DNA of 3,786 nt from a virus (taxonomy: Duplodnaviria > Heunggongvirae > Uroviricota > Caudoviricetes): IMG/VR virus record IMGVR_UViG_2548876938_000007; one strand, 5' to 3'. Positions within the stretch are counted from its first letter, which is position 1; each line of letters starts with the position of its first letter. Both the position numbers and the translations under genes were made by a program. Positions 1,090 to 3,786 of this stretch are shown one piece after another. The notes beneath the pieces were generated by a model. It was not told the origin of the DNA. It saw only the letters and a list, made by a program, of their open reading frames with translations, and did not search any database.

Positions 1090-1389
1090 TCAGCCAGTCT
1101 TTTGGTCTGAGTGGTGCAAGGTTGTTGAGTCTTGCCCAATGTGTGCGAGAGCTGGGGCTATTTGACCAGCTGCGGGATCAGTTTCATCAAACATGAACCA
1201 ATCACGGTATTTACGGAATCTTGGATGTTTTAGAAGTCGCACCACTGCATCATGTGAAATAGATGATTTCCCATTTTCGTACCCTACATACGTAACGTAA
1301 TTAATACCTGTCATTTCAGCTACTTCCTTCTTCTTGAGCCGTTCAGACTCACGGATAAGTTTTAGCTTTTCACGAATCTCAATTGACAT
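1090..1389 (-). CDS. C: Immunity repressor, P2 C-like, 99 aa with N-terminal helix-turn-helix
   Basis: ORF on minus strand, ATG at 1389..1387, stop TGA at 1092..1090. Length is exactly 99 aa, as in P2 repressor C. HTH-like segment KKEVAEMTGINYVTYVGYENGK. C-terminal GQIAPALAHIGQ...SDQKTG matches my recollection of the P2 C C-terminus. Position immediately upstream of int and divergent from cox is as in P2. Confidence 0.85.
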   Translation of the reverse strand: MSIEIREKLKLIRESERLKKKEVAEMTGINYVTYVGYENGKSSISHDAVVRLLKHPRFRKYRDWFMFDETDPAAGQIAPALAHIGQDSTTLHHSDQKTG

Positions 1390-1493
1390 AATGAATCAGA
1401 TCTCTTATTTTTAATCCGTTGTGATATTCCACATCTAACTCTAGTCAACTCCAACTAGCTTTAGTTAGTGGGGCCAATTAGGAGAATAGCAAA
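1383..1493. promoter_or_regulatory. Lysis-lysogeny switch region: candidate early promoter (rightward), candidate repressor promoter (leftward) and operator-like repeats
   Basis: Rightward candidate: -35 TTGACA at 1383..1388 (overlapping the repressor start codon), 17-nt spacer, -10 TATTTT at 1406..1411. Leftward candidate: -35 TTGACT (complement of 1443..1448), 16-nt spacer, -10 TATCAC (complement of 1421..1426), a weak -10. Repeats: AACTC at 1437..1441 and 1447..1451 (10 bp apart), AACTAG at 1453..1458, and an imperfect inverted repeat CTAACTCTAG (1435..1444) / CTAAAGTTAG (1459..1468). Exact promoter and operator assignments are not resolvable by eye. Confidence 0.5.
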
Positions 1494-1850
1494 ATGAATG
1501 TCGGATCTGAAATTTCTGACGAGACAAGACAAGAACTCTCCGTTCTCACAAAAGCAAAGCGTGATTCCGTTAAATTGGCGGCGGCACCATCAGACTTGCT
1601 GTCGAAAGAAGGTTTTGCGCTTTACATCGGCAAGACACCACGAGCGGTGGCTGAAATGGCGAAAGCAGGAAAGCTGCCAGCCTTTTACATGACAGACCCA
1701 TTAAAGCCGGGAGGTCATGCTGAGTTATGGATTAATCGGCGTGAGTGGGACAAGTACGCAGCACAGCTAGTCGAAGAAGCTCCATCAGAATGGCACGACT
1801 GGAAAAATCGCATTAGTTACAGCAAATCAAGACATGGCCGTGCGGCTTAA
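1494..1850 (+). CDS. cox: Cox-like excisionase / early-promoter regulator, 118 aa
   Basis: ATG at 1494 is preceded by AGGAGA (1480..1485) with 8-nt spacing; stop TAA at 1848..1850. The central segment FALYIGKTPRAVAEMAKAGKLPAFYMTDP...AELWINRREW resembles the P2 Cox HTH-like core as I recall it. It is the first gene of the rightward operon, divergent from the repressor. About 27 aa longer at the N-terminus than P2 Cox (91 aa). Confidence 0.75.
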   Translation: MNVGSEISDETRQELSVLTKAKRDSVKLAAAPSDLLSKEGFALYIGKTPRAVAEMAKAGKLPAFYMTDPLKPGGHAELWINRREWDKYAAQLVEEAPSEWHDWKNRISYSKSRHGRAA

Positions 1851-1860
1851 GGTGGACAGG

Positions 1861-2031
1861 ATGAATGAGCCGCGTTGTATTGCTCAGTTATTGCGTAACG
1901 AAAGCCCCAGGGCGATTGATTTCACCATCACCCACGGGAAGGGTCGCAAAGGAATCATTATCCGCACTAAAAAACAGAGTCCATTAAAGAAGGCTCTGAC
2001 CTTTCTGAAAAGCCGGAGGGTATGGAAATGA
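1861..2031 (+). CDS. Small basic hypothetical protein, 56 aa (position equivalent to P2 orf78)
   Basis: ORF-track ORF 1834..2031, but the ATG at 1834 lies inside cox with no SD. The ATG at 1861 is preceded by AAGGTGGA (1849..1856). Stop TGA at 2029..2031 overlaps the next start (ATGA at 2028..2031), suggesting translational coupling. No recognisable domain. Confidence 0.45.
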   Translation: MNEPRCIAQLLRNESPRAIDFTITHGKGRKGIIIRTKKQSPLKKALTFLKSRRVWK

Positions 2032-2528
2032 CAGTGATGACGCTCAATCTCGTTGAAAAACAGCCAGCAGCTATGCGCCGGATAATTGGTAAGCATCTGG
2101 CCGTCCCTCGCTGGCAGGAGACATGCGATTATTATAATCAGATGATGGAACGCGAACGGCTAACGGTTTGCTTCCATGCGCAGTTAAAACAGCGTCACGC
2201 AACGATGCGTTTTGAAGAAATGAACGACGTCGAACGTGAACGACTGGTTTGTGCAATTGATGAATTGCGTGGCGCATTCTCAAAACGCCGTCAGGTCGGC
2301 GCAAGTGAGTATGCATATATTAGTTTTTTAACAGTCAGTCAGCGTCGTACTTTATTTATGCATGCGGGATTGACAGAAAAAGAATTCAATCAGCCGTACT
2401 GGCGAATTAATGAAGAATCATGTTACTGGCGTGATGCTTTATTCCGTGCATTACGTGAATTATTCAGTCTGTTTGAGTATGCACCGACAATTCTGACGTC
2501 GGTAAAACCAGAGCAATATCTGCATTAA
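2028..2528 (+). CDS. B: Replication gene B-like protein, 166 aa (assignment by synteny and length)
   Basis: ORF track gives 2022..2528 (168 aa), but GGAGGG at 2015..2020 is only 1 nt from ATG 2022 and 7 nt from ATG 2028, so 2028 is the likelier start. It overlaps the upstream stop as ATGA. 166 aa equals the size of P2 gpB and the position between cox and the small-ORF cluster is the same. I cannot confirm sequence similarity from memory. Confidence 0.65.
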   Translation: MTVMTLNLVEKQPAAMRRIIGKHLAVPRWQETCDYYNQMMERERLTVCFHAQLKQRHATMRFEEMNDVERERLVCAIDELRGAFSKRRQVGASEYAYISFLTVSQRRTLFMHAGLTEKEFNQPYWRINEESCYWRDALFRALRELFSLFEYAPTILTSVKPEQYLH

Positions 2529-2549
2529 ATAATTAACCAGAGTTTTTAA

Positions 2550-2577
2550 CGCACTTAATCGTGCGGGGCTTCTTTTT
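2550..2577 (+). terminator. Weak hairpin followed by T-rich tract between the B-like gene and the next ORF (possible attenuator or partial terminator)
   Basis: Stem CGCAC (2550..2554) pairs with GTGCG (2561..2565) around loop TTAATC, followed after GGGC by TCTTTTT (2571..2577). Short stem and a gap before the T-run make this weak. Confidence 0.2.
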
Positions 2578-2591
2578 GCCTGGAGAAAGTC

Positions 2592-2816
2592 ATGCATACA
2601 GTTTCTGAAAATCAGTGCGGTAAATACGCATTACTGCTGCAACAGGCCAGAACCGAAGCACAGGCCGATGCTGCGACGCGCTTTTCTTCTCATCTTGACG
2701 CCATGATTCGCCACATCACCAAGGCGGAGTTATCCCGCGTGGAGATAGTTGAGCTGCTCAGTCAGGAGTCGGAAAAATTTCACAATATCGGATTGTCTCG
2801 CGGGGAGGTGCTTTGA
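2592..2816 (+). CDS. Hypothetical small protein, 74 aa (position equivalent to P2 orf80)
   Basis: ATG at 2592 preceded by GGAGAA (2582..2587); stop TGA at 2814..2816 overlaps the next ATG (TGATG). No domain recognised. Confidence 0.7.
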
Positions 2817-3118
2817 TGTCCTGTTCTCGTTCGGTTGTATTACTGAATAACGCCTTAAAAATCGCCGTTATGAAAAATGGTGATTTGTCTCTTATTCAAC
2901 TTGGTATTGATAAAGAGAAGCGCGAAATAACTGAATCTGTTATCGCGATTTATCAGAGTGAATTAAACCTCCTGTCTGATGTGGTCAATTTACTTGTTAA
3001 ACGCGCTGTATTCCACAAGCAAATTTCCTCAGTGGATGAACTGACAAAATTAACGACAGAACTCGCCAGTTATTGCGCTGATGAATTTAAGAAGCTGAAC
3101 GACAAAAGGAGCTGGTAA
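2816..3118 (+). CDS. Hypothetical protein, 100 aa, AT-rich, predicted helical (position equivalent to P2 orf81)
   Basis: ORF track starts at TTG 2813, but ATG 2816 is preceded by GGGGAGGTG (2802..2810) at 5-nt spacing and overlaps the upstream stop. Stop TAA at 3116..3118 overlaps the next ATG (TAATG). Hand-counted GC is about 33-38% in three 60-nt blocks (2821..3000) versus about 47-57% in neighbouring ORFs. Confidence 0.7.
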   Translation: MSCSRSVVLLNNALKIAVMKNGDLSLIQLGIDKEKREITESVIAIYQSELNLLSDVVNLLVKRAVFHKQISSVDELTKLTTELASYCADEFKKLNDKRSW

Positions 3119-3342
3119 TGCCGGACAACGTGGATTTTATTCAGGAACAACAGGCTGAATTACTGGAGCGCCAGATTAACGCGGCAAGGGTAAAACATTG
3201 CGGTGTTTCTGCGCTGGTTTGCGAAGAGTGTGACGCGCCAATACCTGCTGCCCGTCGTGCGGCTTATCCGTCAGCCACGCGTTGTGTTTCCTGTCAGTCA
3301 GTCTTTGAAGCAAAAAACAAACATTACCGGAGAACGGCATGA
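3118..3342 (+). CDS. TraR/DksA-family C4-type zinc-finger protein, 74 aa (position equivalent to P2 orf82)
   Basis: ATG at 3118 preceded by AAGGAG (3106..3111) at 6-nt spacing. Two Cys pairs, C-x2-C (CEEC) and C-x2-C (CVSC) about 20 residues apart, plus the motif PIPAARR...C..CQ and a C-terminal KHYRR, closely resemble F-plasmid TraR and phage TraR-like proteins. Confidence 0.85.
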   Translation: MPDNVDFIQEQQAELLERQINAARVKHCGVSALVCEECDAPIPAARRAAYPSATRCVSCQSVFEAKNKHYRRTA

Positions 3343-3614
3343 GTATTCGTATTGAAATTGGCGAACGTTATGTCGTTACCAGTGACAGCTTTCAGTTTAT
3401 TCTCCACGAGAAAAAGAGAGCGGAAAGCGGTAAAAACGCCGGTCAGGAATGGCTGGCGGTGGTTGGTTATTACCCGAAATTAGGCCAGCTCGTTTCCGGC
3501 CTGATGCATCACGATATTCTGACCGGAAGCGCAAAATCTTTTGCTGATTTAAACGCGCAGGTTGAGCAACTCAGCAAGCGTTGTTCAGAGGCTTTTGGCT
3601 CATATGGCCGTTAA
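3339..3614 (+). CDS. Hypothetical protein, 91 aa (position equivalent to P2 orf83)
   Basis: ATG at 3339 overlaps the upstream stop (ATGA); GGAGAA at 3329..3334 lies 4 nt upstream. Stop TAA at 3612..3614. No domain recognised. Confidence 0.7.
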   Translation: MSIRIEIGERYVVTSDSFQFILHEKKRAESGKNAGQEWLAVVGYYPKLGQLVSGLMHHDILTGSAKSFADLNAQVEQLSKRCSEAFGSYGR

Positions 3615-3773
3615 AGCCTCCGGGCGTTTTGTCCCTCCGTCAGCATTTACCGCAGGCACCGGTAAGGCGTTTACCGGCACCGGCTCACCAAAGGTGAATG
3701 CCTCCATTTTCGGGGCGCTGGCGGTCATTTTTTTTGCCGCAGGTTGCGGTGTTTTCCCTTTTTTCTTGCTCAT
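3600..3773 (-). pseudogene. Q: Possible 5' fragment of a portal protein gene (P2 gpQ-like N-terminus), 57 codons then stop
   Basis: Minus-strand ATG (complement of 3771..3773) is preceded by GGAG at 8-nt spacing (TGGAGTTTTACTGATG, complement of 3771..3786). Translation MSKKKGKTPQPAAKKMTASAPKMEAFTFGEPVPV resembles the N-terminus of P2-family portal proteins as I remember them, then diverges (NALPVPAVNADGGTKRPEALTAI) and stops at 3600..3602. Too short for the ORF track. The assignment is from memory only. Confidence 0.3.
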
Positions 3774-3786
3774 CAGTAAAACTCCA
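3604..3786 (+). CDS. A: 5' end of a replication initiator gene A-like ORF, open to the window edge; possibly truncated or chimeric after about codon 25
   Basis: ATG at 3604 overlaps the end of the upstream ORF by 11 nt. The frame is open to position 3786, which is why the ORF track did not list it. The first 25 residues MAVKASGRFVPPSAFTAGTGKAFTG match my recollection of the P2 gpA N-terminus; the following TGSPKVNASIFGALAVIFFAAGCGVFPFFLLISKTP is Phe-rich and hydrophobic and corresponds to the antisense of a lysine-rich ORF start on the other strand. Confidence 0.5.
   Translation, partial: MAVKASGRFVPPSAFTAGTGKAFTGTGSPKVNASIFGALAVIFFAAGCGVFPFFLLISKTP

Follow-up and report, generated by a model that had tools for sequence, protein, structure and literature searches.

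The stretch of DNA under study, which is referred to below as the window (3786 bp), comes from an E. coli prophage of the P2-like (Peduovirus) type and spans its early region from the integrase gene to A. The minus strand carries int (1-996) and the C repressor gene (1090-1389). On the plus strand lie cox (1494-1850), orf78 (1861-2031), and replication gene B (2028-2528), which starts the B...A replication module in which the gene of interest here, orf81, is always found. Just 3' of B, a terminator-like hairpin on the plus strand (2550-2575) matches the "putative rho-independent terminator" which the P2 annotation places between B and orf80. Next on this strand are orf80 (2592-2816; DUF2732 by Pfam match), which is the invariable upstream neighbor of orf81 in 66/66 loci, and the AT-rich ORF of 100 codons that is our subject (2816-3118). 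The latter is followed by orf82 (3118-3342), which encodes a TraR/DksA-type zinc-finger protein according to Pfam and NCBIfam matches, and by orf83 (3339-3614), which overlaps the start of gene A. The window ends within the 5' part of A (3604-3786), the rolling-circle nickase gene, as seen from the ORF list and the P2 annotation. Megablast with the window matched 77 phage records, the best at about 96% identity over 88% of the length; phages pro483 and vB_YpM_46 are among the best matches. From position 1847 on, the window is 96.5% identical to P2, whereas the immunity region differs and the window cox is only 34% identical to P2 cox.

The AT-rich ORF, which a preliminary description of this DNA had regarded as unannotated, is the early gene orf81 of phage P2 and hence a feature already known. 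It is 95% identical to P2 orf81 at both the nucleotide and the amino acid level, with the same length and the same neighbors. P2 Orf81 (AAD03303.1 / NP_046792.1), annotated since the genome record AF063097, likewise lies between orf80 and orf82 with overlapping stop and start codons, and the differences between the two genes are allelic only. The window protein matches Pfam DUF5405 (PF17399) with 118.1 bits (E 2.3e-34, profile positions 1-88 of 88) at a gathering cut-off of 21.6 bits for the whole-protein HMM score, and 11/11 diverse members of the Orf81 family match the same profile. It also matches PHROG 265 with 182 bits; identity and syntenic position together place it in the P2 Orf81 orthologous group that this PHROG represents.

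The existing labels for this protein disagree. PHROG 265 is named "replication initiation protein," and RefSeq NP_046792.1 copies that PHROG label; PGAP assigns "DUF5405 family protein." We were unable to trace the replication label to any evidence, and searches of the accessible literature on orf81, DUF5405, and PF17399 yielded no experiment or functional study.

Comparison with close relatives gave a dN/dS of 0.13-0.23 for orf81. Because of this ratio, the homologues that extend down to about 30% identity, and a confident AF2 model, orf81 is shown to be a real protein-coding gene under purifying selection. Its synonymous divergence (dS 0.13-0.25) is as high as or above that of B, orf80, orf82, and orf83 (0.04-0.17), and its dN is the highest of the block (0.017-0.058 vs. 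at most 0.009).

The gene is tightly embedded in the early operon. At its 5' end, the orf80 stop codon TGA (2814-2816) and the orf81 ATG (2816-2818) share one base in the motif TGATG (2814-2818), with the Shine-Dalgarno sequence GGGGAGG (2802-2808) 7 nt before the ATG. At its 3' end, the orf81 stop TAA (3116-3118) and the orf82 ATG (3118-3120) share one base in TAATG (3116-3120), and orf82 has the Shine-Dalgarno sequence AAGGAG (3106-3111); all of these elements were read from the plus strand. Both overlaps had been pointed out before, and each start indeed has a good ribosome-binding site. The arrangement is kept in a set of diverged loci (66 IMG/VR loci with 53 distinct proteins of 37-52% identity): the orf81 start overlaps the orf80 stop in all 66 (offsets 0 to -7), and in 62 of them the next gene begins 0-8 nt past the orf81 stop. 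No promoter-like site was detected within or just 5' of orf81. Translational coupling to both neighbors means that the gene is expressed together with the early operon, as the preliminary description had also concluded: orf81 is read from the Pe early transcript along the chain orf80 > orf81 > orf82 > orf83 > A.

We then recounted the base composition, as the low GC content had drawn attention to this ORF. The blocks 2821-2880, 2881-2940, and 2941-3000 have 38.3, 33.3, and 35.0% GC, and an upstream block (2641-2700) has 56.7%, all in line with the hand counts reported previously (about 38, 33, 35, and 57%). The downstream blocks have 46.7, 56.7, and 58.3% (47-55% in the previous counts). The 3' half of B (2341-2460) has 40.0% GC and not the 35-37% given before. 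The dip is real: the GC content is 38.3% in orf81 and 45.4% in the window as a whole, and the pooled value of the six other plus-strand early genes is 47.7% (orf81 vs. this pool, Fisher p=0.003). Of all 303-nt segments, only 3.9% have a GC content equal to or below that of orf81. The stretch with the lowest GC in the window is not orf81 but the C gene with the Pe/Pc control region (37.0%, from 1217).

The dip arises mainly at codon positions 1 and 2. GC1, GC2, and GC3 of the window orf81 are 0.455, 0.297, and 0.396, compared with 0.552 (p=0.08), 0.421 (p=0.02), and 0.458 (p=0.28) for the other early genes; the third position thus does not differ significantly. Orf81 is rich in Leu, Lys, Val, Ile, Asn, Ser, and Glu, and the first six of these residues account for a GC content of about 0.3 at the second position. 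When codons for the Orf81 amino acid sequence were re-drawn from the codon usage of the early region, the expected GC was 0.414, while 0.377 is observed; hence, about two thirds of the deficit is predicted by the amino acid sequence alone.

The same pattern is found across the family. In the 66 diverged loci, orf81 is always below its pooled neighbors in GC (0.396 vs. 0.482) and always below them in GC2, whereas GC3 is lower in only 46, by 0.05 on average. Prophages of Scandinavium and Pseudescherichia have an orf81 with normal GC3 (0.52-0.55) and a GC2 that is still 0.28-0.30. In Serratia and Buttiauxella, orf81 is the lowest or nearly the lowest gene of its module in GC. As the LSJC7, Serratia, and E. 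coli lineages also have an orf81 GC3 under that of the neighbors, amino acid composition is not the whole cause of the dip. The low GC of orf81 comes mostly from its amino acid make-up and is common to the whole family; the dip is ancestral and has persisted in homologues that have diverged to about 30% identity. A local dip of this kind can stem from amino acid composition through codon positions 1 and 2, and for this reason GC3 needs to be checked before a gene is called foreign.

The orf81 branch is small. Searching 1.84 billion cluster representatives yielded 20 at E below 1e-3, all from Enterobacterales except one partial protein labelled Asticcacaulis. The hosts comprise Escherichia, Shigella, Salmonella, Scandinavium, Pseudescherichia, Buttiauxella, Edaphovirga, and Serratia. 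Among the P2-genus phage records that carry orf80, 75/75 have orf81, and the orf80-orf83 block is present in 1672 of 5426 complete E. coli genomes (31%).

A second DUF5405 gene, more widespread than orf81, lies in the same operon. Orf83 also exceeds the DUF5405 threshold (48.9 bits), and it corresponds to CP83 of phage 186 (PHROG 154). Pairwise BLAST of Orf81 against Orf83 detected no similarity, and the alignment of the two family profiles with hhalign spans nearly their full length (probability 86.6%, E 4.5e-6, 85 columns) and includes a Cys conserved in the last helix of both families. On the basis of these profiles, orf81 and orf83 are ancient, diverged paralogues. Both proteins are small and near-neutral. 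Unlike orf81, orf83 occurs in P2-type, 186-type, and ENT4-type modules and lies close upstream of A, whereas orf81 is confined to B-carrying modules, is located 5' of orf82/orf83, and is much more AT-rich.

The gene order B-orf80-orf81-(orf82)-orf83-A is present in 66/66 diverse viral contigs, 45 with and 20 without orf82, and also in prophages of Serratia, Buttiauxella, and Scandinavium. In Buttiauxella, orf81 directly adjoins orf83. The immunity region attached to this module varies: in E. coli prophages it is of the P2 type (C/Cox), and in Serratia prophages it is of the 186 type (CI/CP76/Fil).

Related modules exist that do not have orf81. Phage 186 lacks both B and orf81; its orf80 is followed by a zinc-finger gene, a DnaQ-like exonuclease gene, CP83, a PAPS-reductase-like gene, and A, and the small genes in this part are annotated as "not essential." Accordingly, B was found in 0/80 and orf81 in 0/80 of the 186-type contigs. 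An ENT4-like lineage (about 50 contigs and one isolated phage, Enterobacter phage ENT4, whose GenBank record is marked "UNVERIFIED") has a full-length B as well as orf80, orf83, and A, and its orf80 is followed by orf83 without any gene in between. Since these modules have a full-length B and lack orf81, the minimal module is (B)-orf80-orf83-A. What separates orf80 from orf83 is a slot that can be empty or can be occupied by orf81, by orf82, by both, or by other inserts. In one lineage of E. coli and Yersinia phages, for example, an additional ORF of 81 aa is inserted at the orf80/orf81 junction, before orf81, and the N-terminal half of orf81 has been replaced, giving an intragenic mosaic with the breakpoint at the start of helix 1.

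Because it is absent from 186-type modules, from phage 186 itself, and from the ENT4-like lineage, orf81 is not a core gene but an old accessory one that occupies a variable slot; within the P2 genus and most of its Enterobacterales relatives, it is fixed. Obligate partnerships with single neighbors were considered and rejected. Partnership with B seemed plausible because 146/146 orf81 loci carry B and 80/80 186-type loci carry neither gene, and it was refuted by the approximately 50 ENT4-like loci. Partnership with Orf82 is incompatible with the occurrence of orf81 without orf82 in Buttiauxella and in 20 of the 66 loci, and with the presence of orf82 without orf81 in 186-type modules.

Orf81 is a soluble protein of 100 aa, for which no signal peptide or membrane segment is predicted. 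The AF2 model built from an 11-sequence alignment reached a pLDDT of 87.2 and a pTM of 0.73. It has four beta strands (residues 6-10, 14-18, 24-32, and 37-46) and after them a hairpin of two helices (49-66 and 73-99). A model from the single sequence was all helical with a pLDDT of 54; it is unreliable, and the alignment-based model was preferred. Helix 1 is nearly invariant (ELNLLSDVVNLLVKRAVF) and includes D55, K62, and R63; variation among close relatives falls on loop residues and on the C-terminal helix. No solved structure and no characterized family resembling Orf81 was matched. Its only structural relatives are predicted structures of uncharacterized phage proteins, some of them labelled DUF5405 (TM 0.56-0.67). 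These proteins belong to unrelated phages (Salmonella phage TR2, Morganella phage MP1, and Lactobacillus phages LP65 and Bacchae), and their predicted structures show four beta strands and two helices as in Orf81, at 13-17% sequence identity.

An exonuclease remnant of the DEDD or oligoribonuclease type was also considered and rejected. A single-sequence search of the PDB matched an oligoribonuclease at E 0.012 over 38 residues; the family profile gave 0 hits at E up to 10, Orf81 does not align with CP82 of phage 186, and its predicted fold is unrelated. The DnaQ-like CP82 in the equivalent region of 186 had been a further prompt for this idea.

Taken together, the ORF is P2 orf81, an old accessory gene with a low GC content shared by its family, and we consider this explanation as a whole probable. 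As a best guess, Orf81 would be a small, dispensable binding protein without enzymatic activity, which is produced from Pe in lytic growth only, and helix 1 with D55, K62, and R63 would contact its partner. We infer the dispensability from the natural absence of the gene in related lineages and from the annotation notes on 186. Two directions are conceivable for the partner, and our analysis gives each of them a similar and rather low likelihood. Orf81 may, like its paralogue Orf83, be an auxiliary factor of the A-dependent rolling-circle replication. Alternatively, it may act on a host protein in host takeover or counter-defence, like Orf82 and the 186 proteins Fil and Dhr. We lean slightly toward the second direction because the slot holds interchangeable accessory genes.

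Several neighbors provide models for such an activity. P2 Orf82 is TraR-like and was found by experiment to bind RNA polymerase, and its overexpression halts cell growth (PMC9239242). In the equivalent operon of 186, fil and dhr act on the host according to the 186 annotation. These genes resemble orf81 in that they belong to the same operon and size class and are dispensable and early, with interchangeable positions in the stretch from the immunity genes to A. In contrast to Orf81, the targets of these three proteins are known or partly known, and they have no sequence or fold relationship with it.

Roughly one in three complete E. coli genomes carries orf81. Its paralogy with orf83, its confinement to a variable slot beside the gene for the RNA polymerase-binding Orf82, and a confidently predicted fold that lacks a solved relative make it a well-defined and inexpensive target for experiments in P2, a classic model phage.

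Replication is the function which the database label implies. Here, Orf81 would, like Orf83, assist gpA and/or gpB at the origin, and we regard this as a tentative possibility. It is consistent with the fact that orf81 always lies in the B...A module, whatever immunity module is attached, and that orf83, in all module types, is found a short distance 5' of A, with many cases in which the two genes directly abut or overlap. PHROG 265 and PHROG 154, the Orf83 branch, are both labelled replication, but we were unable to trace where the label comes from, and the known initiator of P2 is gpA by annotation. Furthermore, orf81 is missing from about 50 ENT4-like modules in which B and A are full-length, 186-type modules replicate without it while the 186 homologues of the region are noted as not essential, and Orf81 matched no replication or initiator protein family or structure.

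A broader version of the host-directed direction is also conceivable. Orf81 and DUF5405 might represent a phage-restricted fold (four beta strands and two helices), without a solved homologue, of early inhibitors of host proteins, serving counter-defence or the takeover of host replication or transcription, with the orf80-orf83 slot carrying interchangeable cargo that recurs in unrelated lytic phages. We consider this somewhat unlikely.

The preliminary description had put forward a different scenario, in which a compositionally distinct gene serves host takeover, superinfection exclusion, or anti-defence. In this scenario, orf81 would be an accessory gene of foreign composition that entered by horizontal transfer, as the P2 morons old, tin, and fun(Z) did. 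Its functional part, anti-defence or host takeover, overlaps with the host-directed direction for Orf81 described above; as a whole, the scenario is unlikely.

The likeness to the morons is in total GC. In the P2 genome (50.2% GC), orf81 has the fifth-lowest GC of all genes, right after the AT-rich morons fun(Z), tin, orf30, and old (37-38% for orf81 and 33-35% for the morons). The synonymous sites differ. GC3 is 0.27-0.36 in the morons and 0.376 in P2 orf81 (0.396 in the window), close to the 0.370 of cox and the 0.383 of B (range 0.38-0.41). The synonymous deficit relative to the re-drawn codons is -0.038 for orf81, -0.038 for cox, and -0.042 for B, compared with -0.071 to -0.077 for tin, old, and fun(Z); orf30 has -0.037. 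Because its synonymous sites resemble those of the core genes cox and B and because the dip is family-wide, orf81 is not a recently imported moron, and its composition is no evidence of recent foreign origin.

Expression and distribution also distinguish orf81 from the morons. The morons form transcription units of their own outside the operons and are expressed from the prophage, whereas orf81 has neither a promoter nor a terminator of its own and is coupled to its neighbors, with the overlaps kept in 62-66 of the 66 loci. According to the P2 literature, the morons old, tin, fun(Z), and orf30 vary from one P2 relative to another. A comparison across P2-like phages for presence or absence, as had been proposed, gave a split answer for orf81: there is no variation among the 75 P2-genus phages, and the gene is missing only in the deeper 186-type and ENT4-like lineages. 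This deeper absence, the high dN, and the mosaic allele with the extra ORF in one lineage would fit horizontal acquisition; purifying selection on orf81 speaks against it. A search of Orf81 against the PADLOC-DB defence-system HMMs, a library that does not include anti-defence proteins, returned no family at E up to 0.1. Superinfection exclusion by a prophage is unlikely since orf81 lies in the Pe operon, which, judging from the P2 annotation, is repressed by C.

A reading in which the AT richness mainly reflects an element at the DNA or RNA level that overlaps the coding sequence (for example, a binding site for H-NS or IHF, a regulatory site inside the gene, or an antisense RNA) is very improbable: the GC3 shortfall in 46/66 loci and a weak terminator-like hairpin inside the gene (2859-2886) could point in this direction, but the stretch has no Rfam match and no meaningful repeats, promoter- and terminator-like sites occur in it at chance level only, GC3 is normal in the Scandinavium orthologues, and no hidden constraint is visible because the synonymous divergence of orf81 is not reduced relative to its neighbors.

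Divergence from P2 is spread unevenly over the early genes. Across window 1861-3614, synonymous divergence from P2 (L001) is 0.34 for orf78, 0.16 for the replication gene B, 0.08 for orf80 (DUF2732), 0.17 for orf81 (the AT-rich DUF5405 ORF), 0.04 for orf82 (TraR/DksA-type zinc finger), and 0.035 for orf83 (the orf81 paralogue). As judged from these sequence comparisons, the strong gene-to-gene spread indicates a history of patchwork recombination within the early operon.

The immunity region (window 1090-1850) is unlike that of P2. The window Cox has 118 aa, compared with 91 aa for P2 Cox, and the two share only 34% identity, in contrast to the 95-100% identity to P2 of orf78 through orf83. 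Phages pro483 and vB_YpM_46 and prophages of Scandinavium share the immunity type of the window, with a cox identity of 77-81%. Such a difference reflects the mosaicism of immunity regions already known for P2-like phages.

Further downstream, an additional 81-aa ORF lies between orf80 and orf81 in Yersinia phage vB_YpM_115 (L017 2250-2495) and E. coli DG343-1 (L020 1728-1973). Winged-helix matches of this ORF were sub-threshold only (E ~0.02). In both loci, the N-terminal half of orf81 is replaced as well; hence, the orf80/orf81 junction is a recombination or insertion point. The public protein sets also contain fused orf80-orf81 and orf81-orf82 products, namely P0003 and P0036 (~175 aa), and P0092 and P0094 (167-175 aa), with P0094 representing 74 member sequences located on 10 contigs. 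The probable source of these fusions is either an indel of one base or the way the genes were called, at sites where stop and start codons overlap by a single base.

The entire interval from orf80 to the rolling-circle nickase gene A is a series of cargo slots. In the 80 186-type modules (L167-L246), which lack B and orf81, variable inserts of 200-1300 nt occupy the orf82/orf83 and orf83/A intervals; in phage 186 itself, these intervals hold genes for a DnaQ-like exonuclease and a PAPS-reductase-like protein. A PAPS-reductase-like ORF is located upstream of A in the LSJC7 prophage, too (L006 5745-6788). Several Serratia modules have a called 38-aa ORF between the zinc-finger gene and orf83 (L013 5533-5649, L014 5545-5661, and L015 1566-1682), which E. 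coli P2 lacks.

The B homologue of a Serratia prophage (L012 4341-4643) comprises only 100 aa, compared with 166 aa for P2 B, and retains the Phage_RepB match. In the GenBank record of Enterobacter phage ENT4, B is seemingly truncated at 117 aa. As this break falls exactly at the record origin and B has 166 aa in related contigs, the truncation is probably an assembly artefact.

Within the 5' end of A, ~130 nt inside the coding sequence, there is a terminator-like hairpin, TGCCGCAGGTTGCGGTG, with TTTTCCCTTT directly after it (window 3735-3760). The phage 186 A gene harbors the annotated terminator tM1 ~85 nt inside, at which, according to its annotation, lytic transcripts are expected to end when A is not translated. 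The hairpin may be the P2-type counterpart of tM1, which would be consistent with how tightly the genes from orf80 to A are coupled in translation.
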